Shown: in pieces, positions 7,509 through 45,212 of the stretch
Numbering within the stretch: the stretch's first letter is position 1
Layout: each line of letters begins with the position of its first letter
Assembly: GCA_963612735.1 (NCBI GenBank)
Contig: CAVDWX010000092.1
Coordinates: 3,439 to 67,438 of the forward strand
DNA from: Gemmiger formicilis
Lineage (GTDB): Bacteria; Bacillota_I; Bacilli_A; RFN20; CAG-826
Reading direction: 5' to 3'
DNA: 64,000 nt
The notes under the pieces: generated by a model
Database searches by the model: none
Told to the model about the DNA's origin: nothing
Seen by the model: only the letters and a program-made list of their open reading frames with translations
Translations under genes and position numbers: made by a program

Positions 7509-8031
7509 AATCCTCCTTTAGTACCTTAACTAATTCATCACTTGAACAAACTAATTTACCATGAGTTTTTATGGCACCTGTTAAAAATATATTAACATAA
7601 CTCATCTGAGCTTCGCCCGGTTCTTTTTGCATGGCCGCCAATTTTTGTTGGCCAACTTCTCCTTGGCAAGTTAAGAAACCTTCTCGGCAATCATCGTAAA
7701 GAGCATATAAATTCTTTTTTGGGTCGGCGTCAATCATTTGAGTATAAATGCCTATTTCACAAGTGGTTCCTATTGGAGGAGTATCGTTACTGATTACTGC
7801 AATTAATAAATCTGTTTCTTTTAATCGATTATAATCCCCTCAATAAATATCATATGAGGTAGCACATTTTGTTTTATCATTTATATTTTTATTACGATGA
7901 GGAACATAAATTTGTGCATTTGGGAAAATAGGTACTAAACGTTCGTATAATCAATCAAGATACATTCGGTCTTTTTCAGTAAAAATTGGACCGGCTAAAT
8001 AAATTCTATTTGCAACCTTCTTACTATTCAT
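7384..8031 (-). CDS. nucleoside 2-deoxyribosyltransferase-like protein (NDT/Rcl family)
   Basis: N-terminus MNSKKVANRIYLAGPIFTEKDRMYLDW... carries the YLAGPxF motif of PF05014. Two internal TGAs are read as Trp. The 3' end is uncertain because TGA at 7495 is read through in code 4. Confidence 0.55.
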
Positions 8032-8368
8032 CGGCCGCCTCCTCTGCCCTACTTAAACGGTCTAATTCAATTAGAAACATTACGGCGTAGCAGGCCAAAT
8101 CTTTTACGGTGTCTTCAACGCTTTCGAAGTCATTATGTCCACCCTTAATTAAATTTGTAATACGATCCAATTTATTATGCAAAGGAACCAAACCGGCGAT
8201 AGGACCTAAATCATCAATTAGGCGGCCAAAACTGTCTCCGTAGTTTGAATTTTTCTTCTCATATAAATCAGCCATACGATTTACAATAAGTCTAAATTTT
8301 TCAACTTTTTCTTTGTTTGTCATTTTCGTCTCCTTTAAGTTAAATTTATTTCTACTTATATTATACAA
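8024..8368 (-). CDS. MazG-like nucleotide pyrophosphohydrolase
   Basis: Small all-alpha protein with EKFRLIVNRMADLYEKKNSNYGDSF...DLACYAVMFLIELDR, similar to house-cleaning NTP-PPases. Confidence 0.5.
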   Translation of the reverse strand: MYNISRNKFNLKETKMTNKEKVEKFRLIVNRMADLYEKKNSNYGDSFGRLIDDLGPIAGLVPLHNKLDRITNLIKGGHNDFESVEDTVKDLACYAVMFLIELDRLSRAEEAADE

Positions 8369-8374
8369 TGTAAC

Positions 8375-8415
8375 TAGACTAAAGTCAAAAAAGGCGCAGG
8401 AAAATTTCCTTCCCG
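8375..8415 (-). terminator. rho-independent terminator candidate
   Basis: Hairpin aggaaattttcct inside a GC clamp, followed on the minus strand by CTTTTTTGAC. Confidence 0.4.
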
Positions 8416-8419
8416 GCGC

Positions 8420-8623
8420 TTAATTTTCTTCTTCTTCTCTGCGGCGACCATTCCAATACTCAAGCACTGGATCGGCAGTTGGCAAGTAGTGAACTATCTT
8501 AGGTTGCCAAGCAGTGATTTTTTCGCCGCTATTGATCTTGTGATTCTTAGAACAACATGAGAAACTGGTTGTTCCAATCAAAAGAATTAGTAAACCTATT
8601 AATGTTCTTTTTAATCTAAACAT
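8420..8623 (-). CDS. small secreted protein / putative lipoprotein
   Basis: Signal-peptide-like N-terminus MFRLKRTLIGLLILLIGTTSFSCCS. Confidence 0.45.
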   Translation of the reverse strand: MFRLKRTLIGLLILLIGTTSFSCCSKNHKINSGEKITAWQPKIVHYLPTADPVLEYWNGRRREEEEN

Positions 8624-8625
8624 AA

Positions 8626-9042
8626 TTATGATAATTGCTCCTCAATTTTTAATTTTGTATCATTCATTTTTGCGACACCTGTTAAATTATCAGCCCGAGT
8701 AATTGTTACAGAGTCATCTTTAAAGATAGGTTGTGTAATACTTGGTTGATATATAGCTGGTTTGCTGGTGCCACCTATACCACTAGCCCAATTATCATTG
8801 ATAGTAATAGTATTGGCACGTCAAGTTTCTATAAATTTATTGCATTTTAACTGTATTTTAAAATTTTCTAAATCAGATAAGGTTGTTTCTTTCTCGTTCA
8901 TATCTTTGATAAAGGCTTGAAATTTTGATTGATATTTACATACTTCATAATGTACGCATAATGTACATTTTACTGGTTCAATAATAGCCGATAATTGTTG
9001 AACATCGCTATTGTTGTTGTTATTATTTTTCTTCGTTGCCAT
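8626..9042 (-). CDS. hypothetical protein (TGA read-through)
   Basis: ORF 8821..9042 continues through TGA to the TAA at 8626. Confidence 0.4.
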
Positions 9043-10126
9043 GATTTGTTATCGCTCCTTCTATCCCATCTTCAGCTAATCTTAATTTTACAAGGTAAGG
9101 ATGACGCAAGCGTCCTCGATCGTTGTAACTCATTGCTTTTACTACAGCAAAAAGGTTTCCTTTTTTAATATCTTCAGTTGCAGAAACTAACCATTCTCTG
9201 TCTTCATCGGTTAGACCACTTGTTACTGAAGTTGTGTTTCCATCTGGCAGCTGAACCACAATGCCATTTGCCCAGCCATAATAATAAGGCTTAGTAACAG
9301 GTTCCCAGTCTGTCCATGGGTCATTTAACTCCACTGCAGATGGAGTTCTGATTACTAATTTTTTTTCTCCGCTATCAAGATAAGAGACTTCCCAATAAGA
9401 CCAATTAGAAGGATTTTGACCTTCGTATTCTCTCTTTGGTACTAAGACTCCAATTACTGGTAGCTCCATTTCTTCTAAACTTTGTTTTAATTTCAAAGTT
9501 TTCCATGCGGTACGAGTTCCTGGTAAGTAGGGGTTATCCTTACGTTGAATTACTACTCCTTCTCCACCTGCCGAAATAATTTGGTCTGCATGTTCAGCAA
9601 AGTCATTGGTAAAAATGGCAGTTGGTTTAAAGTAGTGATTAGATAGTTGTGAAAGAGCTCCTAAACGTTGCTCATATGGTGTGTTAGTTAAATCTTGATT
9701 ATTATACATTAAGACATCAAACATTAAACCATATAGCTTGTTCTCTTTTTGTCTTTCAACTGCCTTTGGTGGTAAACAACGTAAGATGGTTCCAACTGTA
9801 TTAGCATTAGTGCCGTATTCGTTCCAACAAATCTCTGCTAAGACAACAGTATTGTCTGGCCAAGTGTCCATTTCTTCAGTCAGATGAGGAAGTTTAGCAG
9901 TGTAATCTCCATATGCACCTGTGACTTTGCTGATGCTTCTACTGTGGATTAAATTATTGCCTTTAGAAAAATGAGCAAAAAGTCCAAAATCTCCATCATG
10001 CTTTTCTGTGGCTATATAAAGATTATCTTTGTTGTCAATCATAGCTTGACGTTTAAGGTTAGAATCATCTTCATTATTATAATATTTCATAATTGGCATT
10101 TCGTAGGCTATATAATGAATGTCCAT
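9023..10126 (-). CDS. ATP-dependent polynucleotide ligase (DNA or RNA ligase, nucleotidyltransferase superfamily)
   Basis: Motif I ATEKHDG (KxDG), motif IV GGEGVVIQ, motif V AWKTLKLK. Arg is absent after KxDG, so an RNA-ligase-like identity cannot be excluded. Confidence 0.6.
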   Translation of the reverse strand: MDIHYIAYEMPIMKYYNNEDDSNLKRQAMIDNKDNLYIATEKHDGDFGLFAHFSKGNNLIHSRSISKVTGAYGDYTAKLPHLTEEMDTWPDNTVVLAEICWNEYGTNANTVGTILRCLPPKAVERQKENKLYGLMFDVLMYNNQDLTNTPYEQRLGALSQLSNHYFKPTAIFTNDFAEHADQIISAGGEGVVIQRKDNPYLPGTRTAWKTLKLKQSLEEMELPVIGVLVPKREYEGQNPSNWSYWEVSYLDSGEKKLVIRTPSAVELNDPWTDWEPVTKPYYYGWANGIVVQLPDGNTTSVTSGLTDEDREWLVSATEDIKKGNLFAVVKAMSYNDRGRLRHPYLVKLRLAEDGIEGAITNHGNEEK

Positions 10127-23007: not shown

Positions 23008-23034
23008 AGAGGCCATTAAGGTCTCTTTTAATTT
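23008..23034 (+). terminator. rho-independent terminator
   Basis: agaggccattaaggtctc hairpin followed by TTTTAATTT, directly after the last plus-strand fibre-block gene. Confidence 0.6.
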
Positions 23035-23127
23035 GGCAGGGGATCCAGGAGTCGAACCCGGTTCGGAGGTTTGGACGCTCCTACGATGATTTTGAAGATC
23101 ACTGGCCAGAACCGTTAGCCCAATCCC
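23034..23127 (-). tRNA. tRNA with anticodon UCA (reads UGA) and long variable arm
   Basis: Minus strand GGGGATTGG-GCTA-ACGGTTC-TGGC-CA-GTGAT-CTTCAAA-ATCAT-[GTAGGAGCGTCCAAACCTCCGAA]-CCGGG-TTCGACT-CCTGG-ATCCCT-G-CCA. The T-loop is TTCGACT, the discriminator is G, CCA is encoded, the anticodon loop is 7 nt with U33 and A37, and the variable arm is about 23 nt. Confidence 0.6.
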
Positions 23128-23162
23128 CTGTAAGGGATGAGTACCTATCGTCGCAAATTAGT

Positions 23163-32218: not shown

Positions 32219-32269
32219 AGTGTCACCACTCCTTTCTTTTTATCTTTTCTTCTTTTATTTTACAATTAT

Positions 32270-32298
32270 ATTATACTAAATTTTTTGCTTCTTGTCAA
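32270..32298 (-). promoter_or_regulatory. sigma70 consensus promoter
   Basis: cttgacaagaagcaaaaaatttagtataat on the minus strand. Confidence 0.65.
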
Positions 32299-32334
32299 GC
32301 AATTTTTTCATATCTTAAAATAAAATGAAGAGCG

Positions 32335-33255
32335 CTAACTCTCCATATTTAAATAGTTAATTGCTTTACGGGCAGCAATGGCTCCATCCGCGCAAGCGGT
32401 AATAACTTGTTTTATCGGCTTATCAAGGCAATCGCCAGCTCCAAATAAGCCCATTTCTTCCGCCCCGCTATGTTTAATTTGGTCAATAGTAAAAGGAACA
32501 CTGTCGGGCAATATTTTTATCGGCACCTTATTAATTTTTTGTCCAATGGCAACGAAGATACTGTTAACCACCAAACTATCATTAATTTTTACTGCATCTG
32601 CATTTTTCATTTCTTCAACTTGGTTGACAGTAAAATTTGGTATCCAGATGCAACGAGGATTATTAAGCAATTTATCTATAACGATTTGTTCGCCGTAAAA
32701 TTTATCTCCTTTAGTAAGTAAGTAGATATTGCCTTCCTTATTAAGGTTTAATAACTCAGTTGCATAAGCTAAAGCACTATTGCCATCTCCCACAACTGCA
32801 ATGGCAGGGTCAGATGCATGTAAAGCACCATCACAAGAAGTACAATAAGAAACAAAACCTTTTTCCGTTAATTGGTACTCATTAGGTAAATCTAAATGTA
32901 CTGGATCGGCACCGGTTGCAATGATAATTACATCAAATAAGTTGTTCTCTACTTCTTCTACCATCTGCAATTGCCAACATTTTCTGTTGGTATTAAATTT
33001 TATATTTAATACGGTATCAAAAGTTAAATTAAGTTCACCTTGTTCTTCAATTTGGTCTATAATGCTCCAACAGTAATCTAAACCAGAAATTGACTTGACA
33101 CCTGGGATATTTTCAATTAAAGGCGCACGACTAGCTTGACCGCCTACGGCATCTTTTTCAATGAGGGTCGTTTTATACCCTGCACGTGTTAAAAATAAAG
33201 CCGCCGTTAAACCTGCAGGTCCGGCTCCAATAATTGCTATTCGTTTATTATTCAT
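32335..33255 (-). CDS. trxB: thioredoxin reductase-like FAD/NAD(P) oxidoreductase
   Basis: N-terminal IAIIGAGPAGLTAA FAD fold, redox-active CTSCDGA (CxxC of TrxB), C-terminal GAGD. Confidence 0.7.
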   Translation of the reverse strand: MNNKRIAIIGAGPAGLTAALFLTRAGYKTTLIEKDAVGGQASRAPLIENIPGVKSISGLDYCWSIIDQIEEQGELNLTFDTVLNIKFNTNRKCWQLQMVEEVENNLFDVIIIATGADPVHLDLPNEYQLTEKGFVSYCTSCDGALHASDPAIAVVGDGNSALAYATELLNLNKEGNIYLLTKGDKFYGEQIVIDKLLNNPRCIWIPNFTVNQVEEMKNADAVKINDSLVVNSIFVAIGQKINKVPIKILPDSVPFTIDQIKHSGAEEMGLFGAGDCLDKPIKQVITACADGAIAARKAINYLNMES

Positions 33256-33278
33256 AAAATTATCTCCTTACTATAATT

Positions 33279-33353
33279 GTGGCACGGGTTAAAAGACTTG
33301 GACTCTTACTGGCGGTTTTGGAGGCCGACGTGCTACCATTACACTAAACCCGC
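33279..33353 (-). tRNA. degenerate tRNA-like element with anticodon-loop CCA (tRNA-Trp-like)
   Basis: Minus strand GCGGGTT-TA-GTGT-AATGGTA-GCAC-G-TCGGC-CTCCAAA-ACCGC-CAGT-AAGAG-TCCAAGT-CTTTT-AACCCGT-G-CCA. Acceptor has 7 bp with G1-U72, G73 and CCA. Anticodon stem is weak and the T-loop is atypical (TCCAAGT). Confidence 0.4.
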
Positions 33354-33356
33354 ATA

Positions 33357-33466
33357 TGGGGAGATATACCGGATTTGAACCGATGCCGAAAGAGCCACAA
33401 TCTTTTGTGCTGCCCCGGCTCCCGCAGCTTGGAAGGCTGCCATACAAAGCTGTTATACGAATACCC
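33357..33466 (-). ncRNA. tRNA-like structured RNA (T-arm GGTTCAAATCC, ends CCCA); candidate Y-RNA-like or pseudo-tRNA
   Basis: Minus strand ...GGCATCGGTTCAAATCCGGTATATCTCCCCA sits 3 nt upstream of the previous element. The 5' GGGGTAT can pair with 3' ATATCTC, enclosing about 110 nt, too long for a canonical tRNA. It lies in the GC-rich leader between the promoter at 33518..33545 and trxB. Confidence 0.3.
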
Positions 33467-33517
33467 CATTGGGTAACCCAAAGCATTTAAACTTTGAACT
33501 ACCTATACGATTAATAT

Positions 33518-33545
33518 ATTATATTCAATTTTCTCGTTTTGTCAA
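33518..33545 (-). promoter_or_regulatory. sigma70 promoter (TTGACA-16-TATAAT)
   Basis: cttgacaaaacgagaaaattgaatataatat on the minus strand. Confidence 0.6.
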
Positions 33546-33555
33546 GAAAACTTTT

Positions 33556-34026
33556 CTAATCTTCTATATCACTGCCATCAGGTGCAAAACACTCAATACC
33601 GGCATAAATGCAATCTTTATTTTCATAATCGATATCTAAAAGGAAGTTATAAAATCGTATCGCTCCTCGGTATTCATCAAGGTCGTCATTAACTATTCTT
33701 AAATCATGGTTTAAATCTGCTAAAATTTCAAGTTTATCTTGTAGAGAATTATTTGTATTATAGACATCTTCTTTTTGTTGTTGGACTGCACGCATATCTT
33801 CTATACAACTATCGACTTTATCGTTTAACCAAGTTTTGATTAAACTAATAGTATCTTTAGATATTGGTTTTGCTACACGATAATCTTCCTCTTTGTATAC
33901 AAAATGCGCAATATGATTACCAATCATTGCACTAAAGCTATCTCGAATATAACCACCATATGAAAATAGCGGTGTATATGTATTTGTTTTTTTATTTTTA
34001 AGATAAAAGCTTACATATTCACTCAT
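33556..34026 (-). CDS. hypothetical protein (156 aa)
   Basis: Intact ORF. Confidence 0.4.
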   Translation of the reverse strand: MSEYVSFYLKNKKTNTYTPLFSYGGYIRDSFSAMIGNHIAHFVYKEEDYRVAKPISKDTISLIKTWLNDKVDSCIEDMRAVQQQKEDVYNTNNSLQDKLEILADLNHDLRIVNDDLDEYRGAIRFYNFLLDIDYENKDCIYAGIECFAPDGSDIED

Positions 34027-34113
34027 AATAATTTTTCCTTTCTTTAAATTTATTTTATGATTACCTAGTTTCTATCAAAAATGATTTGCTTATGTGTAGG
34101 CTGTCTTAAATTT

Positions 34114-35655
34114 TTAATTTAATCTAATACTGGTGTATCTAGGCTTATTTAATACCTCAACCATATAATCATATGGTGTATGAACTTTACCTTGAAGTAA
34201 ATCGGCGAATACAGTTGAGGCTTTACCGCATACCATTTGAACGTAAGGCATACTTGCAATTGTATGGAAGGTGTCTTGTCTTGCATCTACATTCCAAAAT
34301 ACAATATTTGGCAATTGATAGCCCATTACTTCAAATTTATTTCTCATCATATTATAGAATGTATCGAACGTACCGTTATAGTCGGTAGTTTCATCGAATT
34401 CCATATCTGTGATAAGGATTAAATTTTTTGGCATCTCTTCTTGAGATAGATGATTTGTTACAGCAGTTTGTAAGATTAAATCGAACACTGCTTCCATATT
34501 TGTATTGGCAACTTTGCATGGAATAACATTTAACTTTTCAGCTAAACTTGCATTTTCCGGCAAAGTAACCCATTTAGCTTCGCGGCTAAAAACCATCATT
34601 TTATTATGATATGCTCCTGTGTTTCTCTCAGCAAAGTAAACTGCTAAGCTTAAAGCTACATTTAATGGTTGGGTTTCCATAGAACCAGATGTATCGGCAA
34701 CAACAATTGTATTGCTATTTGCATTTTGTGGAATGTAGTTATTTAAACTTTTCCACATAGCTTCTACTTCAGGTATCGGTTGTAATTGATGGTTATACCA
34801 TGCATACCAATTTTTCATGTACTTTTGCACTATTTTATAAGGGAATAAGTGTCCAACATTCATTTTTGCTGCTACTTCTTTCCCATTAACAGTAATAGTT
34901 TTACCTTCTTGTACAGCTTCGACATACTCTTGGAAACGAGCCTTATCGTGACGATTGAACGCCTTAATATATTTAGCCATTGCATTGCCCGGAACCTCAT
35001 TATAATTCACATCAGACCATCTGTTGTCTGAAATGATAGGTTCTAATACCTTACCATATTTTCGTAAAGTACTAAGCATTTTACGATATGCAGGCACTGT
35101 TAAGCCGAATGCTTTTGCAGTTTTTAAGCCTAATCGTCTAGATTCATCAGATGATGTATTTGTAGATTTTAACCATTTAGCTAATATACTAATTGGTTGA
35201 TGATTTCTAAAATTTTGACAATCGTGTCGAAAAATAAATTTAAGATAGTCAAACATTTCTTCTTCACAAGGAGTGCCTTCTAAAGCGTAATAATCGTCAG
35301 CACGACCAAAAAAGCCAATATTATCAAAATTCTTAATTAATATTTCTGGATGGCACGATGCTAACCAACGAAGACAAGTGCGGAAAGTTTGTCTTTCTCC
35401 TAAGCCTTCTTTAATATCTCGTGCATAAAAAATTGTCTTTAGAGTTAACTCAGGGTTTTCATCCCAAGCCATTGTAAGATGTTTATAAATGTCTGTATCG
35501 TCACGGTCACGAATTGACCCTATAATAGCGAACAAATCTAAACATTTAGACATTGTAGTGTTTAAAGCAGGTTGACCATTTTCGGTTACCTTTTGTGCAG
35601 ACATATTGTCCATTGCATTAACAAAATTGATACTCATAAATTTTTTCCTTTCCAA
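34114..35655 (-). CDS. Ro60/Rsr-like protein: TROVE-related DUF2828 N-domain + C-terminal von Willebrand A domain
   Basis: N-terminal TENGQPALNTTMSKCLDLFAIIGSIR...ENPELTLKTIFYARDIKEGLGERQTFR matches the DUF2828/TROVE-like pattern (TENGA..TTGS.LLD.F...R....DP.L...LFY.RD.R.G.GER..FR). C-terminal IVVADTSGSM is a MIDAS motif of a vWA domain. Confidence 0.6.
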   Translation of the reverse strand: MERKKFMSINFVNAMDNMSAQKVTENGQPALNTTMSKCLDLFAIIGSIRDRDDTDIYKHLTMAWDENPELTLKTIFYARDIKEGLGERQTFRTCLRWLASCHPEILIKNFDNIGFFGRADDYYALEGTPCEEEMFDYLKFIFRHDCQNFRNHQPISILAKWLKSTNTSSDESRRLGLKTAKAFGLTVPAYRKMLSTLRKYGKVLEPIISDNRWSDVNYNEVPGNAMAKYIKAFNRHDKARFQEYVEAVQEGKTITVNGKEVAAKMNVGHLFPYKIVQKYMKNWYAWYNHQLQPIPEVEAMWKSLNNYIPQNANSNTIVVADTSGSMETQPLNVALSLAVYFAERNTGAYHNKMMVFSREAKWVTLPENASLAEKLNVIPCKVANTNMEAVFDLILQTAVTNHLSQEEMPKNLILITDMEFDETTDYNGTFDTFYNMMRNKFEVMGYQLPNIVFWNVDARQDTFHTIASMPYVQMVCGKASTVFADLLQGKVHTPYDYMVEVLNKPRYTSIRLN

Positions 35656-35837
35656 GACGCTAAAAGATTTATTTGATAGAATAAGTAACTAATTGTAATT
35701 CTTTTTATATTGCTGAAAGCGTCTTTATACTAGACCCGTTGACAATCGGTTTAAATGACGATAATATTGTGAAAATATGTTGTTTTACGAATTAGCTGTT
35801 AGGGTCTATTTTCTTTCTTTCTTATCTTTACATAAAT

Positions 35838-35866
35838 ATTATACTAAAAATTTTTTGATTTGTCAA
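35838..35866 (-). promoter_or_regulatory. sigma70 consensus promoter overlapping the 3' end of the upstream gene
   Basis: cttgacaaatcaaaaaatttttagtataatat on the minus strand. The TTGACA lies in the last codons of 35844..36479. Confidence 0.65.
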
Positions 35867-36479
35867 GAGAATTTTTTAACATTTCGTCTAAAATTTCCGC
35901 AGTTCTATAATGAGTAGATAAAGCGTTGAAATTCTCCCAAAAACCTTCACAATCAACAATAATTTGTTCAATACTAACTACTTGATTATGATGACAATCA
36001 AGTCCAACGTTATACATCCACGGCACATATTTAATAGCATCATAATAAAATGGACAAAGACTTTGATGAGTATGCCCATACAAATTAATAAGACACTTAT
36101 GTAAACTTGCTTTATCATCTGATGTAATAGTTGGATAATGACTAAGCCAAAAATGATATTTACCATATTTAAGCGGTTTTGCGTATGTAACTTCTACTAC
36201 ATTTGGAAAAGTGCGGTATAATTCAATGCGGCGCTCCGTGTCGTGATTACCGCAAATGATATGTAATCGACCTTTTAAACTTTTAATTTGATTATGAACG
36301 GCAGGAGAATCCGTAAGCATTAAATCTCCCAAAATATAAACATCGTCTTCATCTTTGACAGTAGTGTTCCATTTGAAGATAACATCTTTAGTCATCTCAT
36401 CAAGGCTATTATAGCCTCGTGGTTTATATAGAAACTCTTTATTATGTCCAAAATGTAAATCAGATGTAAAATATATCAT
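35844..36479 (-). CDS. calcineurin-like metallophosphoesterase
   Basis: DLHFGH...GDL...GNHD...GHTH motifs. Confidence 0.65.
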   Translation of the reverse strand: MIYFTSDLHFGHNKEFLYKPRGYNSLDEMTKDVIFKWNTTVKDEDDVYILGDLMLTDSPAVHNQIKSLKGRLHIICGNHDTERRIELYRTFPNVVEVTYAKPLKYGKYHFWLSHYPTITSDDKASLHKCLINLYGHTHQSLCPFYYDAIKYVPWMYNVGLDCHHNQVVSIEQIIVDCEGFWENFNALSTHYRTAEILDEMLKNSLDKSKNF

Positions 36480-36493
36480 AATCTTCTCCTTTC

Positions 36494-36589
36494 GTTTAAA
36501 GGAATATACTAATTCGGAGTCTTTATTTGCCTATACGACAGAATTAGTATATTCCTTTAAACGGCGAGTTTTCATTAGAGACTCGCCGG
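36494..36589 (-). promoter_or_regulatory. two large hairpins immediately upstream of the phosphoesterase RBS
   Basis: 18-bp perfect inverted repeat aaaggaatatactaattc/gaattagtatattccttt and hairpin cggcgagt...actcgccg, sitting between the tRNA-Ala-like element and the RBS aaaggagaag. Confidence 0.4.
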
Positions 36590-36608
36590 CTCCCCGTTAA
36601 TCAAATAT

Positions 36609-36690
36609 GGTGGATTTTATGGGATTTGAACCCATCTGAAAATTTCCTGCTTGCAAGGCAAGCGACCACCCCTAGCAGTCCCAAAACCCA
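36609..36690 (-). tRNA. tRNA-Ala(UGC)-like with 10-nt variable loop
   Basis: Minus strand GGGTTTT-GG-GACT-GCTAGGGGT-GGTC-G-CTTGC-CTTGCAA-GCAGG-AAATTTTCAG-ATGGG-TTCAAAT-CCCAT-AAAATCC-A-CCA. Has G3-U70 and A73 (Ala identity elements) and anticodon UGC. The anticodon arm is nearly identical to E. coli tRNA-Ala. Confidence 0.5.
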
Positions 36691-36699
36691 TTTCTAGGA

Positions 36700-37660
36700 T
36701 GATTTAGGCTCATCACTCCCACACCGATTTATTTTTAAGAGTAAAATAGTGTGCTTATTTTGTCTCTCTAAACGGGCGTCCCCGGTCTTGCCGGCCCCAG
36801 CCCCAACCATAATACGGAAGAGTTCGCGATGGGTCGTCGCGCTCTTGCTTCGGGTGTTCGTTATGGACAGGTGGTAATCATTCGGATTCATATTTGATTA
36901 CTCTCATTCTGCGTCCACCTTGTATCGTCCGCCAACGTATTACTGTAATGCAACTTATTGAGATATCTTTCGATTAGGTAGTTGCTAAACCTACCAACTA
37001 ATGTATGGGCACAGCCAGTTGTTTTTTATACGAGTTTCTAGGTGAGGCGTACCATTCTACTGTCTCTCGGGCTATTTTGGTTTAACTTTGATAGATACCA
37101 ACCTACCAATGGGTCTTGCAGTTATCGAGCGTCAGTCCCAACTGGACACGGCGCACTTAGTTAATGATGAGACCCCTGTCTCATTGTTATCATTAACAAA
37201 TGCAGCAATCAATTATAAGCCTATAATGTTCTGTAGTTTAAATATCATTGCGATAAGGCACTACATAGCCCCCAACTTGTAATTTTTACGTGTTTGAGGT
37301 ATTGGATACCCTACTGACTTCACGGTGATTATCGGCACCACAAGCGCTTTTTCGCATTACAACTTTTTTCGACTTCGACGGGAAAATAAGTAACGATACA
37401 AGTCTATCCGTATAAGCCACGGAGGCTATATTTGCACAAAACCTTCAATTATTTAAAGTCGTTTTATGTCCAAGACCGAAGTTGTGCGCTGGCGTTTCGA
37501 CTTTTATGCAGAGTTCCGTTTTGACGGACTTTCTTGTTCCTTAGCATTAGAACGGAGACCACGATTAGAATTGCACTAATCACTATCCATTAGGGCGGCC
37601 ATCGGTAGGCGGGATGATGAACATCCCTTTAAAGGTTTTTTATTTTTCTTTTCTTATCAA
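36700..37660 (-). ncRNA. roughly 1-kb GC-elevated structured noncoding RNA upstream of, and co-transcribed with, the tRNA-Ala-like element
   Basis: No ORF longer than 65 codons on either strand. GC content far above the flanks. Many long-range complementary segments. Transcribed from the promoter at 37671..37699. Confidence 0.45.
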
Positions 37661-37670
37661 TTACATAAAT

Positions 37671-37699
37671 ATTATACTAAATTTTTTACTACTTGTCAA
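37671..37699 (-). promoter_or_regulatory. sigma70 consensus promoter
   Basis: cttgacaagtagtaaaaaatttagtataatat on the minus strand. Confidence 0.65.
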
Positions 37700-37732
37700 G
37701 AAATTTATTCAACTTTTTGAAAAATTTTATTG

Positions 37733-38095
37733 CTAAGGAAGTGGAACCCAATGGCTAGTATCATTATTCCAATATAAGTCCACACCGGTTACATCGTAAG
37801 GATTACCCCAACAATCATAAATTAACCCTTGTTTAATTTGACAAAGCATTCCTAGTCGTTCAGATGAACGCTTTACAGAAAGTAAATCTGTATCAAGAGA
37901 ACGAGCTAGTTGAACTATTTTTTGATACACACCGATACCTTTTGCACGATAAAGATGCGGAGAAACGGCACGATTAACTTCAACTAAACTACGACGTTCC
38001 ATCGCATTGAGTGTTGCCGCCGATAAATTTAGTACCTTAGCAGTATACCAACCATCAGATGGAAAATTTGATAACTCATTAACATAATCTGCCAT
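37733..38095 (-). CDS. hypothetical protein (120 aa)
   Basis: Intact ORF downstream of the promoter at 38148..38176. Confidence 0.45.
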   Translation of the reverse strand: MADYVNELSNFPSDGWYTAKVLNLSAATLNAMERRSLVEVNRAVSPHLYRAKGIGVYQKIVQLARSLDTDLLSVKRSSERLGMLCQIKQGLIYDCWGNPYDVTGVDLYWNNDTSHWVPLP

Positions 38096-38147
38096 AACGA
38101 TTTTCTCCTTTATTTTTAATTTTATCTTTTATTTTATTTACATTATT

Positions 38148-38176
38148 ATTATACTAGATTTTTAACATCTTGTCAA
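38148..38176 (-). promoter_or_regulatory. sigma70 consensus promoter
   Basis: cttgacaagatgttaaaaatctagtataat on the minus strand. Confidence 0.6.
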
Positions 38177-38187
38177 GCAATTTGATT

Positions 38188-38225
38188 ATTTTTTCGTTAA
38201 AAAAGAGCAAGGGACTTAACTCCAC
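38188..38225 (-). terminator. rho-independent terminator
   Basis: gagcaagtggagttaagtcccttgctc hairpin followed by TTTTTT on the minus strand. Confidence 0.6.
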
Positions 38226-38261
38226 TTGCTCGTAAAACGGGAATGATGACCGTGCGACTTA

Positions 38262-38372
38262 ATTAACTAAGTCTTCGGTGCTATACGAGCAAGGTATGAC
38301 TAAAGAGCAACAAGGTTCGCTTACTGTAAAATCATTATTTTGTAATGGTGTAACAAATGTAATGTTTGTCAT
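38262..38372 (-). CDS. Cys-rich micropeptide (37 aa) with dedicated promoter and terminator
   Basis: MTNITFVTPLQNNDFTVSEPCCSLVIPCSYSTEDLVN. RBS aaaggagac. Promoter at 38423..38451 upstream and terminator at 38188..38225 downstream. Confidence 0.4.
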
Positions 38373-38422
38373 AATCTTTAGTCTCCTTTATAAAATTTCT
38401 TTTTATTTTTATTTACAATTAT

Positions 38423-38451
38423 ATTATAGCAAATTTTTCACGTTTTGTCAA
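38423..38451 (-). promoter_or_regulatory. sigma70 consensus promoter
   Basis: cttgacaaaacgtgaaaaatttgctataatat on the minus strand. Confidence 0.6.
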
Positions 38452-38484
38452 GAAAATTTTGCGTTCTTTTGAAAAATTTTTCCG

Positions 38485-38694
38485 CTACTCATCAAATGAG
38501 TTAAGTTTACGATGTTTAGGATGCCGAGAAAATTTCGTCTTATCACGAAAGGTAATCGCCCTAAACTTTTGTTGTGCTGCTAAATGGCCCTTTGCAGGCA
38601 CTTCTTTTTCAAGCACCTGCACTTTACCATTAAAGGTTTTAATTTTAATTTTTATTGCCATGGCTCTTCCTCTTCTTCCATTCCAAACTCCCAA
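38485..38694 (-). CDS. small basic protein (likely starting MAIKIKIK at 38661)
   Basis: Lys/Arg-rich 57-69 aa ORF. It overlaps the 3' end of 38652..39098 in another frame. Confidence 0.3.
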   Translation of the reverse strand: MGVWNGRRGRAMAIKIKIKTFNGKVQVLEKEVPAKGHLAAQQKFRAITFRDKTKFSRHPKHRKLNSFDE

Positions 38695-39098
38695 TCTAGT
38701 ACTTCGCCATCTATTTCTTCCCTAAAAGCACACCAAACATCTTCTTCTAAAAAATCACGAATTGCAGGGATTAAGTTAAAAGTAGGTCTTGTCGCTGTAA
38801 AGCGAATATCTTCTACTTGTACATCTACTAATGGTGCTATACCTCGATTTACTCTGATTTCATTAATATCATTAAGACGACCATTATTTTCCCAAATATT
38901 TACTAAATCTTCTTCAGTAAAGAAAGGAATCGATGCACCTTCTTCTACTGGGCGAAAAGTTTTTTGTAAAAATTCATTAAATTTTTCAATATACTCAGCA
39001 TTAAGCTCCATAACATTAATATACTCTACACGTTCAACAGAACGAATTACTAATTGTCTACTCACAATTAATTTCCTCCTTATTTCTTCCAAGGCCAT
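38652..39098 (-). CDS. hypothetical acidic protein immediately downstream of the sigma factor gene
   Basis: 148-aa ORF ending EEEEEPWQ. Its start overlaps the sigma gene stop. Confidence 0.45.
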   Translation of the reverse strand: MALEEIRRKLIVSRQLVIRSVERVEYINVMELNAEYIEKFNEFLQKTFRPVEEGASIPFFTEEDLVNIWENNGRLNDINEIRVNRGIAPLVDVQVEDIRFTATRPTFNLIPAIRDFLEEDVWCAFREEIDGEVLDWEFGMEEEEEPWQ

Positions 39099-39919
39099 GC
39101 TGCCTTTAATTTTTGTAAACTTGCTTTTTCGATTTGTCTAACTCTTTCACGAGTTAAGTTTAATTCAGCTCCAACTTCATCTAAAGTATGAGTTTTTGTC
39201 CAATTAATTGGGTCACCATTTTCAACCTTACCTAAACCCATACGCATTTTAATTACTATTTGTTCACGTGGTTTTAAAACGGTCTTAATTAAATCTTGAA
39301 TTACTTCTTCTTTTTCCTTACGAACTGCAAAATGTTCAGGTGTTTCGCTTCTTGTGTCTGCTTGTAAGTCACTTAAAGTGTCACCATCATCTCCTAATGG
39401 TGTTTCAAGACTTACAGTGTCATAGCGCCAACCTTCCAAGTCAGCAACCTTTTCTACATCGATGCCCATAACTTCTGCGATACGAGCAGGTGTGGCTTTT
39501 CCACCCTTACTTTCTAATTCAGCAATAGTTGCTCTATACTTGTTCAACATTTGATAAATATGAGCGGGAATACGGATAGTTTTTCCGCAATCAGTGATTG
39601 CTTTAGTAATGGCTTGACGAATCCAAGGAGTCGCACAAGTTGAGAAACGATAACCTAAGTCTGGATTGTATTTTTCAACCGCAGTGATTAAACCTAAATT
39701 TCCTTCAGCGATTAAGTCTAACTTTTCCATATGACTGTTTTGATAATTATTTGCAATTGATACAACCAATCTTAAGTTACTATTGATTAATTGTTCTTTC
39801 GCAGCGTGAGCAACTTCAGGGTCTTCGCTTCTCATTTTGTATGCTAATTCTCTTTCTTCATCTGCACTTAATAATTGATATTCACCAATTTCTTTCATAT
39901 ATTTATTTAATGCTGTCAT
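39080..39919 (-). CDS. phage-encoded sigma-70 family RNA polymerase sigma factor
   Basis: Region 2 (LRLVVSIANNYQN...DLIAEGNLGLITAVEKY), region 3 and region 4 (TLDEVGAELNLTRERVRQIEKASLQKLK). Confidence 0.8.
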   Translation of the reverse strand: MTALNKYMKEIGEYQLLSADEERELAYKMRSEDPEVAHAAKEQLINSNLRLVVSIANNYQNSHMEKLDLIAEGNLGLITAVEKYNPDLGYRFSTCATPWIRQAITKAITDCGKTIRIPAHIYQMLNKYRATIAELESKGGKATPARIAEVMGIDVEKVADLEGWRYDTVSLETPLGDDGDTLSDLQADTRSETPEHFAVRKEKEEVIQDLIKTVLKPREQIVIKMRMGLGKVENGDPINWTKTHTLDEVGAELNLTRERVRQIEKASLQKLKAAWPWKK

Positions 39920-39973
39920 ATACTTAAAACCTACCTTTTCTTTTTATTTTTCTTTTATTTTATTTATATTATA

Positions 39974-40002
39974 ATTATACGCCTTTTTGAATGATATGTC
40001 AA
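39974..40002 (-). promoter_or_regulatory. sigma70 consensus promoter for the sigma factor gene
   Basis: cttgacatatcattcaaaaaggcgtataat on the minus strand. Confidence 0.65.
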
Positions 40003-40018
40003 GAAAAATGCTCTATTT

Positions 40019-40324
40019 TTATTCATTTTCTTGGAAATCTTCTACAAACTCTATTATCGTATATAAAGCCTCACTAACTTGTTTAATATTTTTCAATCCC
40101 GGACGTAAGGTATATTTTGCTTTATGAGAATCCTTAGCATCCCCAATACCCCATTGTATTGAAATGGTAATTAAACAATCTTCAAGAGAACATTTTTCGC
40201 CAATTCGACAGATGCTAATATCTGAAATCGCAAACCATGATTCACCATGATAGTATTTTTTCATCTTTTTTTCAACAATATTTTCTATTTTTTGATAATC
40301 TTGCATTCCTAACATATTATTCAT
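40019..40324 (-). CDS. hypothetical protein
   Basis: Intact 101-aa ORF. Confidence 0.4.
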   Translation of the reverse strand: MNNMLGMQDYQKIENIVEKKMKKYYHGESWFAISDISICRIGEKCSLEDCLITISIQWGIGDAKDSHKAKYTLRPGLKNIKQVSEALYTIIEFVEDFQENE

Positions 40325-40565
40325 TTCCTTTCATTCTATTTTTTAATACTTCCACCCCCTCTAAAGCGCTTGCAATAACATAAAACACTCTAGGTCCGGC
40401 ATCGATATATAAGCGATTATCCATATACCAACAACGAGATATACCACAATTACGAACAGATGCCACTTCCCAAGCAGGTTTCATTACTTCATTTAAATTC
40501 TCTCCTTCACTAATAACTTCACCTGTAAAACTTTCTATTAAATAAAATCTATTTACATTTTCCAT
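40317..40565 (-). CDS. hypothetical protein
   Basis: Intact 82-aa ORF overlapping the next gene by 8 nt. Confidence 0.4.
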   Translation of the reverse strand: MENVNRFYLIESFTGEVISEGENLNEVMKPAWEVASVRNCGISRCWYMDNRLYIDAGPRVFYVIASALEGVEVLKNRMKGNE

Positions 40566-40623
40566 AATTCATACCTTACCTTTCTTAAGAAATAATATTT
40601 TACTTTTTATTTCTTATACTAAT

Positions 40624-40652
40624 ATTATACTCCTTTTTGAACGATATGTCAA
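40624..40652 (-). promoter_or_regulatory. sigma70 consensus promoter
   Basis: cttgacatatcgttcaaaaaggagtataat on the minus strand. Confidence 0.65.
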
Positions 40653-40680
40653 GAAAAATGCATATAAAAAAGGAAGATTT

Positions 40681-41589
40681 TTACTCTTCCTCTGTTCCTT
40701 CATTCTCTTCAAACGACTCCTCCGCCGTTTGGTCGGCTCCGTCGTCTTCTTTCATATCTTCAATTTTATCTAAAATTTCTTCGATTTGAATTTGGTCAAA
40801 GTTGAATTTTTGAAGCCAATTTACTCCATATTTCGCAGCAAAACGTATCATTAGAATACCAAAACGTTCCCAAAATGATTCAATATTCATACATTTAGAG
40901 TCTTTCGCCAAATTAATTATATCATCAGTTACTATCTCAAACCATTCTTCATCATCTTCCGGTATCTCAATTCCTTCGACAGGTGGACAATCTAAGAAGT
41001 GATTAATCAACCATTCAAAGTAATCTCTGTTATCATTCTCGGTCATAAGTTTCTCGAATAATAAATCACTAAAAAATGACATATAGGCATCCTCAAAGTC
41101 TTTTAAGAATGTATCAATTTTAACATAAGGTACATCAAAACTATGCCATTTAAAACTTTTTTTAGTTAATAATTTTACTTTCATGCGGTCTTCGTTAACT
41201 GTATCAACTGAATAGCCTGTTAAAAGTACTTTATGTTGATTCCAATATACGGTAATACAGAATTGCACATCATTGCCCATAACTCTTACTAAAGAGATAC
41301 CATCTTTCGGCTTAAAGCAAGAAATTGTCGGTTTTTCAGACATATATTTGCAACCAAAAATAAGATAATTCATAAATATAGTTAACCAATCCGCACGATA
41401 CTTTATATCTTCGGGAATCGGTACGGTCTTTGGTTCGCTATCTTCGCCATCTTCATCTTCTTCAACGTATTCTACAGTTGCACCATTTCGTAAAATGGAA
41501 TACACAAAGAACGTAAGTATTAAAAACACAAATATTAATATAATTGGAAACGCATATTCGTTCATAAATGTTAAATAGTAATAATTCAT
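40681..41589 (-). CDS. membrane-anchored protein with acidic C-terminal tail
   Basis: N-terminal TM segment FPIILIFVFLILTFFVYSIL. Ends DDGADQTAEESFEENEGTEEE. Confidence 0.45.
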   Translation of the reverse strand: MNYYYLTFMNEYAFPIILIFVFLILTFFVYSILRNGATVEYVEEDEDGEDSEPKTVPIPEDIKYRADWLTIFMNYLIFGCKYMSEKPTISCFKPKDGISLVRVMGNDVQFCITVYWNQHKVLLTGYSVDTVNEDRMKVKLLTKKSFKWHSFDVPYVKIDTFLKDFEDAYMSFFSDLLFEKLMTENDNRDYFEWLINHFLDCPPVEGIEIPEDDEEWFEIVTDDIINLAKDSKCMNIESFWERFGILMIRFAAKYGVNWLQKFNFDQIQIEEILDKIEDMKEDDGADQTAEESFEENEGTEEE

Positions 41590-41616
41590 TCCTTTTCCTC
41601 CTTCATTACATACTAT

Positions 41617-41645
41617 ATTATACTAAACTTTTTACTCTTTGTCAA
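41617..41645 (-). promoter_or_regulatory. sigma70 consensus promoter
   Basis: cttgacaaagagtaaaaagtttagtataatat on the minus strand. Confidence 0.65.
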
Positions 41646-42264
41646 GTAAATTGTTCACTTTTTCCGGCATCAAGTACTGCGGAGAAATTTTCCATTGGTA
41701 GCAAAATGCATCTGCGCCGGCTGTGAAGTGATACTTGCCATTGCGGGCTAAAAGCCCGTGTTCAAGCATCCAATTACTCATTCGGCTTACATCGCCTTGT
41801 TCACTACCAATAATAGTATGTAGACGTTCAATTCCACCTGCCCATCCGCTATTAAAAATAGTGTCATAGTAAAAGTAGGCGGCAAAAAGTTTAAAATATG
41901 AACCAGCCGTTTGTCTATTGAAGTGAGTTAGCAATAAATCCACCACGCGGTCAAAAGTTTCCATCGGCATTAGAACGATTGATGTATCCACTTGCCAAAT
42001 TATCGGCTCTTTTAAACGTGCGCGCCAACGGCTTAATGATGAGTTAGTTAATTGCATATTAGCGTAACACAGTCTCTTACTGTCGGGCACTATGCGGAAA
42101 CGGCAATCCTTCGGTGCGAAACTACTTTCATATTCAATTGCGGATGCTCGCAAGGCCATCATAAATGTTAAATAATCACGTTTGTATAAAGTCCAGTCGG
42201 TGTCTACGATAGGAAGGTATGGAAGATTGGTTTTGTATTTATAAAAAGTGTTATTAGTGTTCAT
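41632..42264 (-). CDS. hypothetical protein (210 aa)
   Basis: Intact ORF with no strong own promoter. Likely co-transcribed with the upstream structured RNA. Confidence 0.4.
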   Translation of the reverse strand: MNTNNTFYKYKTNLPYLPIVDTDWTLYKRDYLTFMMALRASAIEYESSFAPKDCRFRIVPDSKRLCYANMQLTNSSLSRWRARLKEPIIWQVDTSIVLMPMETFDRVVDLLLTHFNRQTAGSYFKLFAAYFYYDTIFNSGWAGGIERLHTIIGSEQGDVSRMSNWMLEHGLLARNGKYHFTAGADAFCYQWKISPQYLMPEKVNNLLDKE

Positions 42265-42469
42265 AGAAAATCTCCTGTGTTATATTATGTAAACCACAAA
42301 TTGTATTATATAAGATAACAAGGTCATGGACTGCTAGACACATTTTGAAGTTTATTTAATTGTGTTTTCGTGTTATCTTATCTTATTCTTAGTGATATAC
42401 ATTTTCATTTTAATCCGTTTTTGATAAAAAGTCCATTTTGAGTTAAGTAGTTGTTCTGCGTAGCGCGGA

Positions 42470-42720
42470 ACCCCTAGGTGGAGCGCGAGCTACGCATGTA
42501 AGTGATGTTAGCACGGTGCGAGCGCAGCTCAGCAACGACCGCAACGCGGGCGTAGTTCCTTCCTGCGGAGCAAGGAAGGTCGGATGGATACGAAGAGTGC
42601 GGCGGCAGGCGCACTCGTAGTAAAGTGAAGCGAGCCAAGTGTATCGTTCTAATCGTTCGCTCCAATGCTTAGAAGAACGTCAAGGAAGGAAAGACCATAA
42701 ATGGCCTTCCCCCTTAACTA
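42470..42720 (-). ncRNA. GC-rich structured noncoding RNA candidate with two upstream 16-bp direct repeats
   Basis: Multiple strong hairpins: gcgtagc...gctacgc, ccttcctgcggagcaaggaagg, gagtgcggcggcaggcgcactc, ggaaggaaagaccataaatggccttcc. Upstream on the minus strand: tagaatttcacagcgc x2 and a TTGACA -35-like element. The only ORF, 42474..42665, is an artefact. Confidence 0.4.
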
Positions 42721-42785
42721 TCTAAGCAATTCTATCATGTCAAGCGCTGTGAAATTCTAACCATCACATCGGGCGCTGTGAAATT

Positions 42786-43235
42786 CTAGCCATTGGCGCC
42801 GCTGGCTTCCTTCGTCTTCAAACGGCTTATCACCTTTGCGCGCTTTTCTGCCATCAATGCGGCCTTAGCAGCCGCCTCAGCCTCACGAGCCTTTGCCTTT
42901 GCAGCCTTACTTGCTACTTCATCATCGTAAGCATTTGCCGCCTCAAATGGGTCGTAATCAAGTGCCTTGATAGTATTTTTTAGTTCTCAGCTAATTGTAT
43001 AACCGGTAGCTTCATTTTCAATAACGAAAACAATACCTTCCTTCGTCACTAAAATATCTACTTCATCACCATACATCTGCTTGAGGTCATCTACCAAGGC
43101 AGCGACTCCTTCGGCGCGTCATTGATTACGGGCTGTTTGTTGAATGGTTTCGGTGCCATTAGCAGTGATATTGGTTGGTAGGGCACCTAACGAAGCTATT
43201 TGGCGGCAAAAAGACGTAAACTTTAATTCATTCAT
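42786..43235 (-). CDS. hypothetical protein (149 aa, Ala/Lys-rich C-terminus)
   Basis: Hand-translated single frame MNELKFTSFCRQIASLGALPTNITANGTETIQQTARNQWRAEGVAALVDDLKQMYGDEVDILVTKEGIVFVIENEATGYTISWELKNTIKALDYDPFEAANAYDDEVASKAAKAKAREAEAAAKAALMAEKRAKVISRLKTKEASGANG with two TGA=Trp codons. RBS aggagaa. Confidence 0.5.
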
Positions 43236-43315
43236 TAACTTGGTTCTCCTTTCTTATCTTAAAAAAGGAAGGCAGGAATTAAATCCTCCTCCCAATTAGT
43301 GTTTTAGGTTCAATT

Positions 43316-43585: not shown

Positions 43586-43587
43586 AG

Positions 43588-43899: not shown

Positions 43900-44225
43900 G
43901 AGGCAAGGATTTACGTGGACTAATCACGACCTTGCTAGTGTAGACTTGCTATCTCGAAGTGCTTCACTACTACTCCGGTGGTAACCCCACAATTGCTCCA
44001 CTGGTTTGTCGACGTGGGGTAAGGCGGTATGGTCGTAAGTGACCTAACTCGTCAATTGAAATCAATGCAATAACTCCGAAGATGTTTATCGCTCGAAATT
44101 AACTTCCAATTGCTCGCTTCTAGTAAGAGCTAACTGCGCGTTCTCGCCGCTGACTCACGAATGGTATCTTATCGGTCATACCATTAGACCGTGACGATAA
44201 GACTTGAAGATTATCTTAACTTATC
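43810..44225 (-). promoter_or_regulatory. roughly 400-nt GC-elevated structured 5' leader / candidate ncRNA
   Basis: Lies between the promoter at 44243..44271 and the gene at 43588.. Inverted repeat aatggtatgaccgataagataccatt and long-range ccccac...gtgggg pairing. Confidence 0.35.
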
Positions 44226-44242
44226 TTATCATTTACATAAAT

Positions 44243-44271
44243 AGTATACTAAAAGTTTGGCGTTTTGTCAA
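44243..44271 (-). promoter_or_regulatory. sigma70 promoter (TTGACA-17-TATACT)
   Basis: cttgacaaaacgccaaacttttagtatact on the minus strand. Confidence 0.6.
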
Positions 44272-44293
44272 GAAATTTTTTCTAATTCTCGCC

Positions 44294-44785: not shown

Positions 44786-44862
44786 AATAATTTTTCTCCT
44801 TCTGGCGACTCTTGGCTCGCCTGACCAAATTTAATTTTTTTCTTATCTTTAATTACAATAAT

Positions 44863-44891: not shown

Positions 44892-44924
44892 GAAAATCGC
44901 TCCATTAATTGTTAAATTTTTCGG

Positions 44925-45020
44925 ACGGCAAGTAGAATATGAATTAAGGAGGTAACATATGAAGCGCCGTCCGCAGTAAGAAGATTTTCTTTTAAGGTTC
45001 TTTTATCATCTTTCTTACAA
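44925..45020 (-). ncRNA. short promoter-proximal RNA candidate with two stem-loops (contains a 6-codon plus-strand mini-ORF with strong RBS)
   Basis: Downstream of the promoter at 45025..45053 and upstream of the next promoter. Stems gtaagaaag/cttcttac and gcggacggc/gccgtccg. The plus strand has aaggaggtaacatATGAAGCGCCGTCCGCAGTAA. Confidence 0.25.
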
Positions 45021-45024
45021 TAAT

Positions 45025-45053
45025 ATTATACTAAATGATTGACGTTTTGTCAA
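45025..45053 (-). promoter_or_regulatory. sigma70 consensus promoter
   Basis: cttgacaaaacgtcaatcatttagtataatat on the minus strand. Confidence 0.65.
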
Positions 45054-45212
45054 GAAATTTGTTCGGCAAATGAAAAATTTTTGCGCGACGAACTAAAACC
45101 AAAGACGTCATAGGCTCACTTCAATAGCCGCGCAGATAAAATTGCTGCCGGGAAATGCGCAGATTACTGCCAAACGCTCCAAGAAGGTGCCGGCAAACCG
45201 CGCCCAATCATG

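Follow-up and report, generated by a model that had tools for sequence, protein, structure and literature searches.

A stretch of 64,000 nucleotides (nt) from contig CAVDWX010000092.1, here called the window, is gut-phage DNA that encodes a large terminase, a portal protein, a helicase, a topoisomerase II, a ligase and its own sigma factor. On its minus strand, a unit reading from ~37662 down to 36494 comprises an RNA of ~970 nt devoid of open reading frames (ORFs; 37662..36690), followed by a tRNA-Ala, two hairpins and the ribosome-binding site (RBS) of the next gene. On balance, we favour the view that this locus is an early transcription unit made up of a mosaic noncoding RNA (ncRNA) and a tRNA, a new relative in kind of the GOLLD and ROOL phage RNAs. 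A sequence-only reading of the same DNA had proposed a large, ornate RNA with many long-range complementary segments. The corresponding picture of a single global fold built on such helices is not supported; homologues instead show a mosaic of autonomous modules that are inserted, deleted and reused in other phages. We favour autonomous modules because the core motif closes on itself, modules occur alone, one long-range helix is contradicted and a hairpin in another locus (L170) covaries without its proposed long-range partner. The promoter, the lack of coding potential, the conservation, the structures of the modules and their distribution are all supported directly.

The core, the deeply conserved part of the RNA, is a 135-nt three-way junction on the minus strand (36942..36808) that scores 125 bits with our covariance model R1, whose seed includes the window sequence. 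It runs from P1 (UAAUACG/CGUAUUA) through GUUGGC, P2 (GGAC/GUCC and AGGUGG/CCACCU, plus a hairpin), AUAACGAACA, CCCGAAGCAAGAG, a hairpin (CGCGA/UCGCG) and AACUCUUCC to the 3' strand of P1. In the family as a whole, P1 and GUUGG are followed by a P2 that is optional and elaborated, then by a purine-rich joiner, CCCGAAGCAAGAG and a covarying hairpin, and AACUCUUCC leads straight into the P1 3' strand. The window copy (36942..36808) has each of the features that define the GUUGG/GAAGCAAGAG family (R1): P1, GUUGG after the P1 5' strand, and CCCGAAGCAAGAG-hairpin-AACUCUUCC directly before the P1 3' strand.

Homologues were collected with the pattern GAAGCRAGAG-N10-30-AACTCTTCC, taken from the window core, which matched IMG/VR phage contigs, 12 bacterial contigs from metagenome-assembled genomes (MAGs) and metagenomes. 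RNAalifold on 10 core sequences predicted 26 pairs, 16 of them with compensatory changes. When the explicit structure was imposed on the 21 seed sequences, 89.6% of cells were paired compared with 40-48% for slid structures, and the covariation score was 0.45 compared with 0.04-0.12; each position of P1 is represented by 4 to 5 pair types. Model R1 separates true matches (at least 52.9 bits) from pattern-only false positives (at most 33 bits), and it recovered 60 more copies in metagenome loci, bringing the total to 69 distinct sequences. The same core structure holds in 56 independent metagenome sequences (91.5% paired versus 39-48% slid).

Copies of the core, in forms of 65 to 200 nt, are found in phage tRNA islands, in rumen and gut metagenomes and on chromosomes of uncultured gut Bacilli. 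Thirty of the 69 sequences fall within ORF-free stretches no shorter than 800 nt, and 19 have a same-strand tRNA within 500 nt; in L049, a minimal form of 65 nt precedes a tRNA-Arg by 11 nt. The motif also occurs by itself, as an element of ~147 nt surrounded by housekeeping genes, in MAGs of uncultured gut Bacilli, 'Mollicutes' and other Bacillota. One such context reads ProRS, tRNA-Ser, core motif, DUF4886, ZnuABC and PlsX, and another places the motif between an iron ABC transporter and a NERD protein. None of ten scanned neighbour proteins matched a phage-typical family, and so, judged by their gene neighbours, the bacterial copies do not look like parts of prophages. A bacterial copy had no Rfam match even at E<=10. 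The core is thus a widespread RNA motif absent from Rfam 15. We found no description of it in the literature, and the motif string was absent from 200 (of 408) supplement files of a human-microbiome structured-RNA catalogue, although large catalogues of unnamed candidates could contain it.

Around the core, the unit resolves into the following features, all on the minus strand and listed from the promoter to the next gene:

37699..37671, minus strand: sigma-70-type promoter TTGACA-17-TATAAT, matching the consensus at 12 of 12 positions.
37628..37662, minus strand: A-rich unstructured 5' leader, unpaired in both the minimum free energy (MFE) and alifold structures.
37601..37627, minus strand: GGGAUGUUCAUCAUCCCGCCUACCGAU, which may fold locally (hairpin GGGAUG/CAUCCC) or, as alifold predicts, pair with 36728..36697 as the 5' strand of a ~25-base-pair (bp) terminal helix; invariant in the clade, without covariation.
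37557..37600, minus strand: tRNA-like minihelix, supported by covariation; it combines an acceptor-like stem (GGCCGC/GUGGUC) and a CC/GG mini-hairpin with a 6-bp hairpin whose 7-nt loop reads UGCAAUU and which lies immediately 5' of the 3' strand of the stem.
37508..37556, minus strand: two hairpins, GUUCU/GGAAC and UCCGU-CAAA-ACGGA, with a compensatory C-G to U-A change in L038.
37434..37487, minus strand: module closed by GCACAA/UUGUGC with conserved CUUCGGUCUUGGACAUAA inside, from comparison with L124, L173 and L177.
36999..37433, minus strand: variable middle made of hairpins, where the aligned relatives differ by large insertions and deletions the size of a module (L038 lacks ~330 nt; other inserts in L028, L030 and L037).
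36943..36998, minus strand: pre-core segment including the hairpin GUUGGUAGG..CUACC, conserved in five of five clade sequences.
36942..36808, minus strand: the three-way-junction core.
36778..36798, minus strand: GC-rich hairpin GGGGCCGG-CAAGA-CCGGGGAC, with CCGG/CCGG changed to CAGG/CCUG in L177, L119, L161 and L183; common to the L040 RNA.
36737..36769, minus strand: hairpin AGAG-AC-AAAAUA[AGCACAC]UAUUUU-A-CUCU, from alifold; also in L170 at the start of another transcript.
36697..36728, minus strand: AUCGGUGUGGGAGUGAUGAGCCUAAAUCAUCC, a local hairpin GAUGA/UCAUC that covaries with L170 (GAUGG/CCAUC), and candidate 3' strand of the terminal helix.
36689..36608, minus strand: atypical tRNA-Ala(UGC) with encoded CCA, found by ARAGORN and by the Rfam tRNA model (RF00005; 36.1 bits against a threshold of 29).
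36563..36587, minus strand: predicted hairpin GGCGAGU..ACUCGCC without a U-tract, a remnant of the relatives' post-tRNA element.
36494..36562, minus strand: predicted 23-bp perfect hairpin abutting the phosphoesterase RBS, kept 5' of the same gene in L028 and L038.

The covariation analysis with homologous phages that the sequence-only reading had proposed supports two of these modules, the core and the minihelix. In ten minihelix sequences, drawn from the clade and from the unrelated contigs L103, L170, L165 and L141, 100% of cells are paired versus 36-49% when slid, and four pairs have changed on both sides. Together with the two hairpins that follow it, the minihelix forms a 93-nt block that is 96.8% identical in L103, where it lies inside an otherwise unrelated, promoter-driven ORF-free region of ~900 nt. 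The minihelix and the 3' hairpin module also occupy other positions, or other transcripts, in L170, L165 and L141. Read from the sequences, the module at 37434..37487 has undergone replacement of its whole closing helix: UCUCGGA/UCCGAGA encloses the same inner sequence in L124, L173 and L177. More widely, modules recur in large noncoding regions of other phages (0.9-2.5 kb). The ~1.65-kb L040 RNA (~9310..7690, minus strand), which extends from promoter to terminator and lacks a tRNA, and the ~2.5-kb noncoding region of L173 (~6775-9328, plus strand) each have the core and a few other modules in common with the window RNA. Related phage loci have the shared core in or near tRNA arrays, and in four of them (L046, L047, L057 and L071) true ROOL RNAs accompany it; in L057, ROOL occupies 3442-4049 and the core 4100-4234, ~50 nt after the ROOL 3' end. 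A long-range helix between CUUCGGUCUUG and CAAGACCGGGG proposed by alifold was rejected, since the change from CCGG..CCGG to CAGG..CCUG in L177, L119, L161 and L183 preserves the local hairpin but disrupts the long-range pairing.

Relatives of the entire unit were fetched through the 120-amino-acid protein encoded upstream, which led to gut-metagenome contigs; four of these phage contigs (L028, L030, L037 and L038) contain the complete RNA. Aligned RNA blocks are 88-91% identical in nucleotide sequence in all four, whereas the adjacent coding gene is only 73-78% identical in three of them (L030, L037 and L038), a difference which argues that the RNA is under purifying selection. Flanking proteins are 48-92% identical among the matches. 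Within the clade, most differences consist in the insertion or deletion of an entire hairpin module, and several helices carry compensatory changes. A search of the INPHARED phage collection found no similar DNA, and the RNA is absent from the IMG/VR relatives of the phosphoesterase. L030 holds a second copy of the promoter and the first ~240 nt of the RNA (6796-7030; 88% identical), which starts another unit at the contig end; some phages therefore carry paralogous copies.

The sequence-only reading had described a GC-rich, ORF-free region with a consensus promoter at its 5' end, and the latter two points proved correct. The 12-of-12 promoter at 37699..37671 would place the transcription start near 37664, and its hexamers are invariant across seven homologous sequences. 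It is one of at least nine near-identical promoters, which all lie on the minus strand in the section from 32 to 49 kb (32260-48940), a cluster that from its sequence looks like an early-gene region. The repeated promoters share ~70 nt of conserved context around a perfect TTGACA-17-TATAAT (for example at 38176..38148, 38451..38423, 35866..35838, 44282..44218 and 45066..44989). Between 36690 and 37662, each of the six frames contains at least six TAA stops, plus TAG and TGA, so that credible ORFs are absent from both strands, also under recoding. The longest ORF has 65 amino acids under code 11, 94 when TGA is read as sense (antisense, within the indel-rich part) and 117 when TAG is read as sense (again antisense to the RNA). 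The GC content had been called far above background, which was an overstatement; it is elevated, at 0.420 compared with 0.338 for the window (+2.3 standard deviations, within the top 2% of 973-nt windows). Relative to shuffled sequences, the MFE of the minus strand has z = -2.6 and that of the plus strand z = -0.9. The RNA region contains no direct-repeat families, and no CRISPR array or other tandem repeat was detected there.

Assignment to the GOLLD/ROOL class, as the sequence-only reading had suggested, fared less well. Rfam 15 was scanned over the whole window at the gathering score and over 36300-37900 at E<=10. Together with scans of L040 and of a bacterial copy of the core, this yielded tRNA as the only family, apart from chance microRNA-like matches to the big hairpin. 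GOLLD, ROOL, raiA, HEARO, OLE, group I and II introns, RNase P and transfer-messenger RNA (tmRNA) gave no match on 36300-37900 even at E<=10, and the model of the conserved GOLLD 3' domain (RF01998) matched neither there nor at the gathering score in the whole window. This negative is meaningful because the same tool finds ROOL (RF03087) at 258-297 bits in L046, L047, L057 and L071 and a group I intron in L071. Membership in either class, the question for which an Infernal scan including RF01998, RF03087, raiA, HEARO, OLE and group II had been suggested, is therefore not supported, while the earlier failure to recognize a ribozyme core by eye (RNase P, tmRNA, group I/II) agrees with the covariance models. 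What survives of the comparison is the shared genomic setting of a promoter-driven, ORF-free, conserved and structured phage RNA next to a tRNA; homology and the picture of a single ornate RNA do not. Two resemblances noted in passing were set aside. A likeness to RNase P (AGAAAGUCCG, ACCCGAAGCAAG, by eye) fails because no RNase P model matches and because GUCCGUCAAAACGGAAC folds into a hairpin locally and shows a compensatory change in L038. In a possible mimicry of the 23S GTPase centre (GUUGGC...GAAGCA), the pairing pattern differs.

The tRNA-Ala-like element with G3-U70, A73 and UGC that the sequence-only reading had seen is present at 36689..36608, as are the two hairpins between it and the next RBS (36587..36563 and 36562..36494). 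Its alanine identity elements (G3:U70, A73 and a 3' CCA) are read from GGGUUUU...AAAAUCC-A-CCA, and its T arm is good. Where a canonical elongator tRNA has U8, A14 and G18G19 in its D loop and 4-5 nt in its variable loop, this one has G8, a D arm that can fold as a 7-bp hairpin with only 3 nt in the loop, and a variable loop of 10 nt. Judged by these letters, the element is a near-complete but atypical tRNA. The atypical variant recurs in L028, L037 and L038 (39.4 bits), whereas the tRNA-Ala that L030 carries in this position is canonical (67.5 bits). In the relatives, tRNA-Ala is followed by a conserved element of ~125 nt and then by tRNA-Ile(GAU) (L028 1920-3311; L030 3994-5847; L037 4482-5658). 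L028 continues with ~1.1 kb of further ORF-free sequence and a tRNA-Glu, and in L030 a GIY-YIG gene lies within the stretch preceding tRNA-Glu. Compared with these relatives, the window has lost the part of the island after tRNA-Ala. A perfect 12-nt complement on the minus strand between a loop of the core (36900..36889) and the tRNA 3' end plus trailer (36609..36598) was rejected as a functional pairing, as it is not conserved in relatives; it is probably a by-product of the deletion junction. The post-tRNA hairpin region folds with z = -6.8, and its 23-bp hairpin is a candidate RNase III site or translational element.

Directly downstream of the RNA unit is a metallophosphoesterase gene (36479..35844; RBS and ATG at 36492..36477). 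About 1 kb downstream of the RNA, a protein with DUF2828 and DUF7788/vWA domains (34114..35655, minus strand) carries the PHROG 850 label 'RNA-binding protein'. Its sequence matches neither Ro60 nor another named protein in PDB, and a functional link to the RNA was rejected because the gene is not co-located with the core motif in other loci.

The phage appears to read TGA as sense, probably as Trp (a code 4-like usage). ORF coverage rises from 0.71 to 0.88 once TGA is read as sense, and in-frame TGA occurs in 23 ORFs of at least 150 amino acids, with a maximum of 16 in one ORF (one example region is 10210-12333, minus strand). A gene at ~43235..42790 (minus strand) has an RBS plus two in-frame TGA codons. 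The window also encodes a UGA-reading tRNA (23034..23129, minus strand; 'tRNA-SeC(tca)' in ARAGORN) and a tRNA-Trp(cca) (33280..33353). A gene hidden by the alternative code is ruled out for the RNA region, which remains ORF-free with TGA as sense and has many TAA and TAG stops in all frames. Translated with TGA as Trp, four ORFs were inspected by eye (849-1931 and 3666-4529, minus strand; 15972-18845 and 19739-20944, plus strand): two resemble GIY-YIG homing endonucleases and two are structural-looking with Hint/intein-like segments (CL..DTLITM ... HNTYFANGLL.GN). A second ORF-free, GC-rich stretch of ~350 nt (GC ~0.5 by eye), at 42440..42790 (minus strand) between two minus-strand genes, has no Rfam match at the gathering score and may be another structured RNA.

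A single large fold is a serious rival to the mosaic. It would be one ornate RNA of the GOLLD/ROOL kind, in which the ~970 nt adopt a global fold closed by a terminal helix of 37627..37601 with 36728..36697, the tRNA is covalently attached as in some GOLLD RNAs, and the product serves as an RNA-only scaffold or multimer. We regard this as possible but rather unlikely. Alifold predicts the ~25-bp helix (alignment positions 37-63 with 1053-1085), and the first and last 200 nt are complementary with z = -5.9 against shuffles; this much of the earlier claim of many long-range complementary segments stands, whereas two such pairings fit local hairpins better among homologues. That end complementarity, a single promoter without internal terminators and highly conserved linkers all suit a global fold, as do the sense-only MFE signal and the identical module order in L173, L177 and L124, and the variable 5' part, the conserved core towards the 3' end and the adjacent tRNA parallel GOLLD (PMC12286853). 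The mosaic reading is further weakened in that the full-length clade comprises five sequences, with most helices outside the two tested modules lacking covariation, that the invariance of the core junction was partly imposed by the pattern used to collect homologues, and that the RNA ends are predicted ones. The proposed terminal helix, however, is invariant and thus shows no covariation; in L170, where a transcript begins with its 3' strand and the 5' partner is missing, it is the local hairpin that covaries (GAUGA/UCAUC to GAUGG/CCAUC). No significant terminal 5'-3' pairing was found in L040, L103 or L173, covariation contradicts the second long-range helix, modules occur alone or in other orders, and the GOLLD and ROOL models do not match.

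Less probable is that the RNA is a long structured 5' leader, a cis-regulatory untranslated region of the phosphoesterase mRNA, with the tRNA as a processing signal and no function in trans. The lack of an intrinsic terminator between tRNA-Ala and the phosphoesterase gene counts against our preferred reading here, as the unit could indeed be such a leader; moreover, the 23-bp hairpin abuts the RBS of this gene, and the gene also follows the island in L028 and L038. Yet the core and other modules occur in many loci without a phosphoesterase gene, bacterial chromosomal copies stand alone with no same-strand downstream gene, and in relatives the RNA is separated from the phosphoesterase gene by inserts of more than 1 kb of additional ncRNA, tRNA-Ile, tRNA-Glu and an ORF. 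The RNA is also better conserved than the neighbouring coding gene in three of the four relatives. Decayed or non-functional sequence, whether derived from a tRNA array that has degenerated, from mobile elements or from a gene disrupted or recoded by an alternative genetic code, is a disfavoured and very improbable reading. The tRNA-like features (minihelix and atypical tRNA), the GIY-YIG genes and many tRNAs nearby in relatives, and the apparent recoding of TGA could be taken as its signs, but TAA and TAG stops in all frames leave no ORF that recoding could rescue, and strong sequence conservation, compensatory helix changes, the lack of repeats and the failure of any intron or transposon model to match all speak against it.

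On the mosaic reading, host RNA polymerase would start at the perfect sigma-70 promoter, giving early transcription of the ~970-nt RNA and then of the atypical tRNA-Ala, with probable read-through into the phosphoesterase gene because no terminator follows the tRNA. RNase P would cut the precursor at the tRNA, and possibly also at tRNA-like modules; RNase III may cut the long perfect hairpin; and one or several stable structured RNAs would result. The core might then bind whichever cellular partner or ligand the host copy binds, in which case the phage would be mimicking or hijacking a host small RNA as it takes over the cell. In this scheme we infer processing, stability, partner binding and timing.

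GOLLD and ROOL rank among the most striking RNAs of unknown function, and few classes of large tRNA-island RNA are known; the locus adds a further, non-homologous and visibly modular type. Tentatively, the core, a three-way junction with ~27 near-invariant nt in gut Bacilli and in rumen and gut phages, could represent a new class of functional RNA, acting as ribozyme, as ligand sensor or as the binding site of a conserved cellular machine, that phages copied into giant mosaic RNAs, and/or the RNAs of 1 to 2.5 kb could form a third class beside GOLLD and ROOL. A catalytic or ligand-binding core, if true, would be a new class of RNA. At 65-150 nt, strongly covarying, stand-alone in bacteria and available in dozens of natural variants, the core is tractable for biochemistry, and the minihelix and the conserved atypical tRNA-Ala offer handles on precursor processing. 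The link between small RNAs of host chromosomes and giant phage RNAs suggests host-RNA mimicry as a takeover strategy.

Among known systems, the T4 'species 1 and 2' RNAs are stable ncRNAs of a phage tRNA cluster, transcribed together with the tRNAs and set free by the enzymes that process them; by comparison, the present unit is much larger and has a core that is shared with host chromosomes. tRNA-like domains occur in tmRNA and in the bacterial Y RNA YrlA, and the minihelix resembles these in pairing an acceptor-like stem with a hairpin that has a 7-nt U..A loop 5' of the stem's 3' strand, like acceptor and T arms, but it lacks a CCA end, and no tmRNA or Y RNA model matched. Theta ribozymes, which are similar to the hepatitis delta virus (HDV) ribozyme, are small structured RNAs adjoining tRNAs in gut phages with alternative codes (PMC10879173). 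The core is comparable as a small conserved structured RNA beside tRNAs in gut phages with an alternative code; no HDV-like model matched, however, and the core is a three-way junction rather than a double pseudoknot and is not consistently adjacent to tRNAs. ROOL is an ornate ncRNA of tRNA islands in rumen and gut phages and shares contigs with the core motif, although ROOL sequences, in MAFFT alignments read by eye, lack the GUUGG/GAAGCAAGAG/AACUCUUCC junction. GOLLD has a variable 5' part, a conserved 3'-proximal region and sometimes embedded or linked tRNAs (PMC12286853). The present RNA does not resemble the GOLLD env-38 sequence in a comparison by eye only, yet the two are alike in their phage location, in a length above 800 nt (here ~970) and in an adjoining tRNA (here tRNA-Ala directly 3'); unlike GOLLD, the conserved core here spans only 65 to 200 nt and occurs also as a stand-alone bacterial small RNA.

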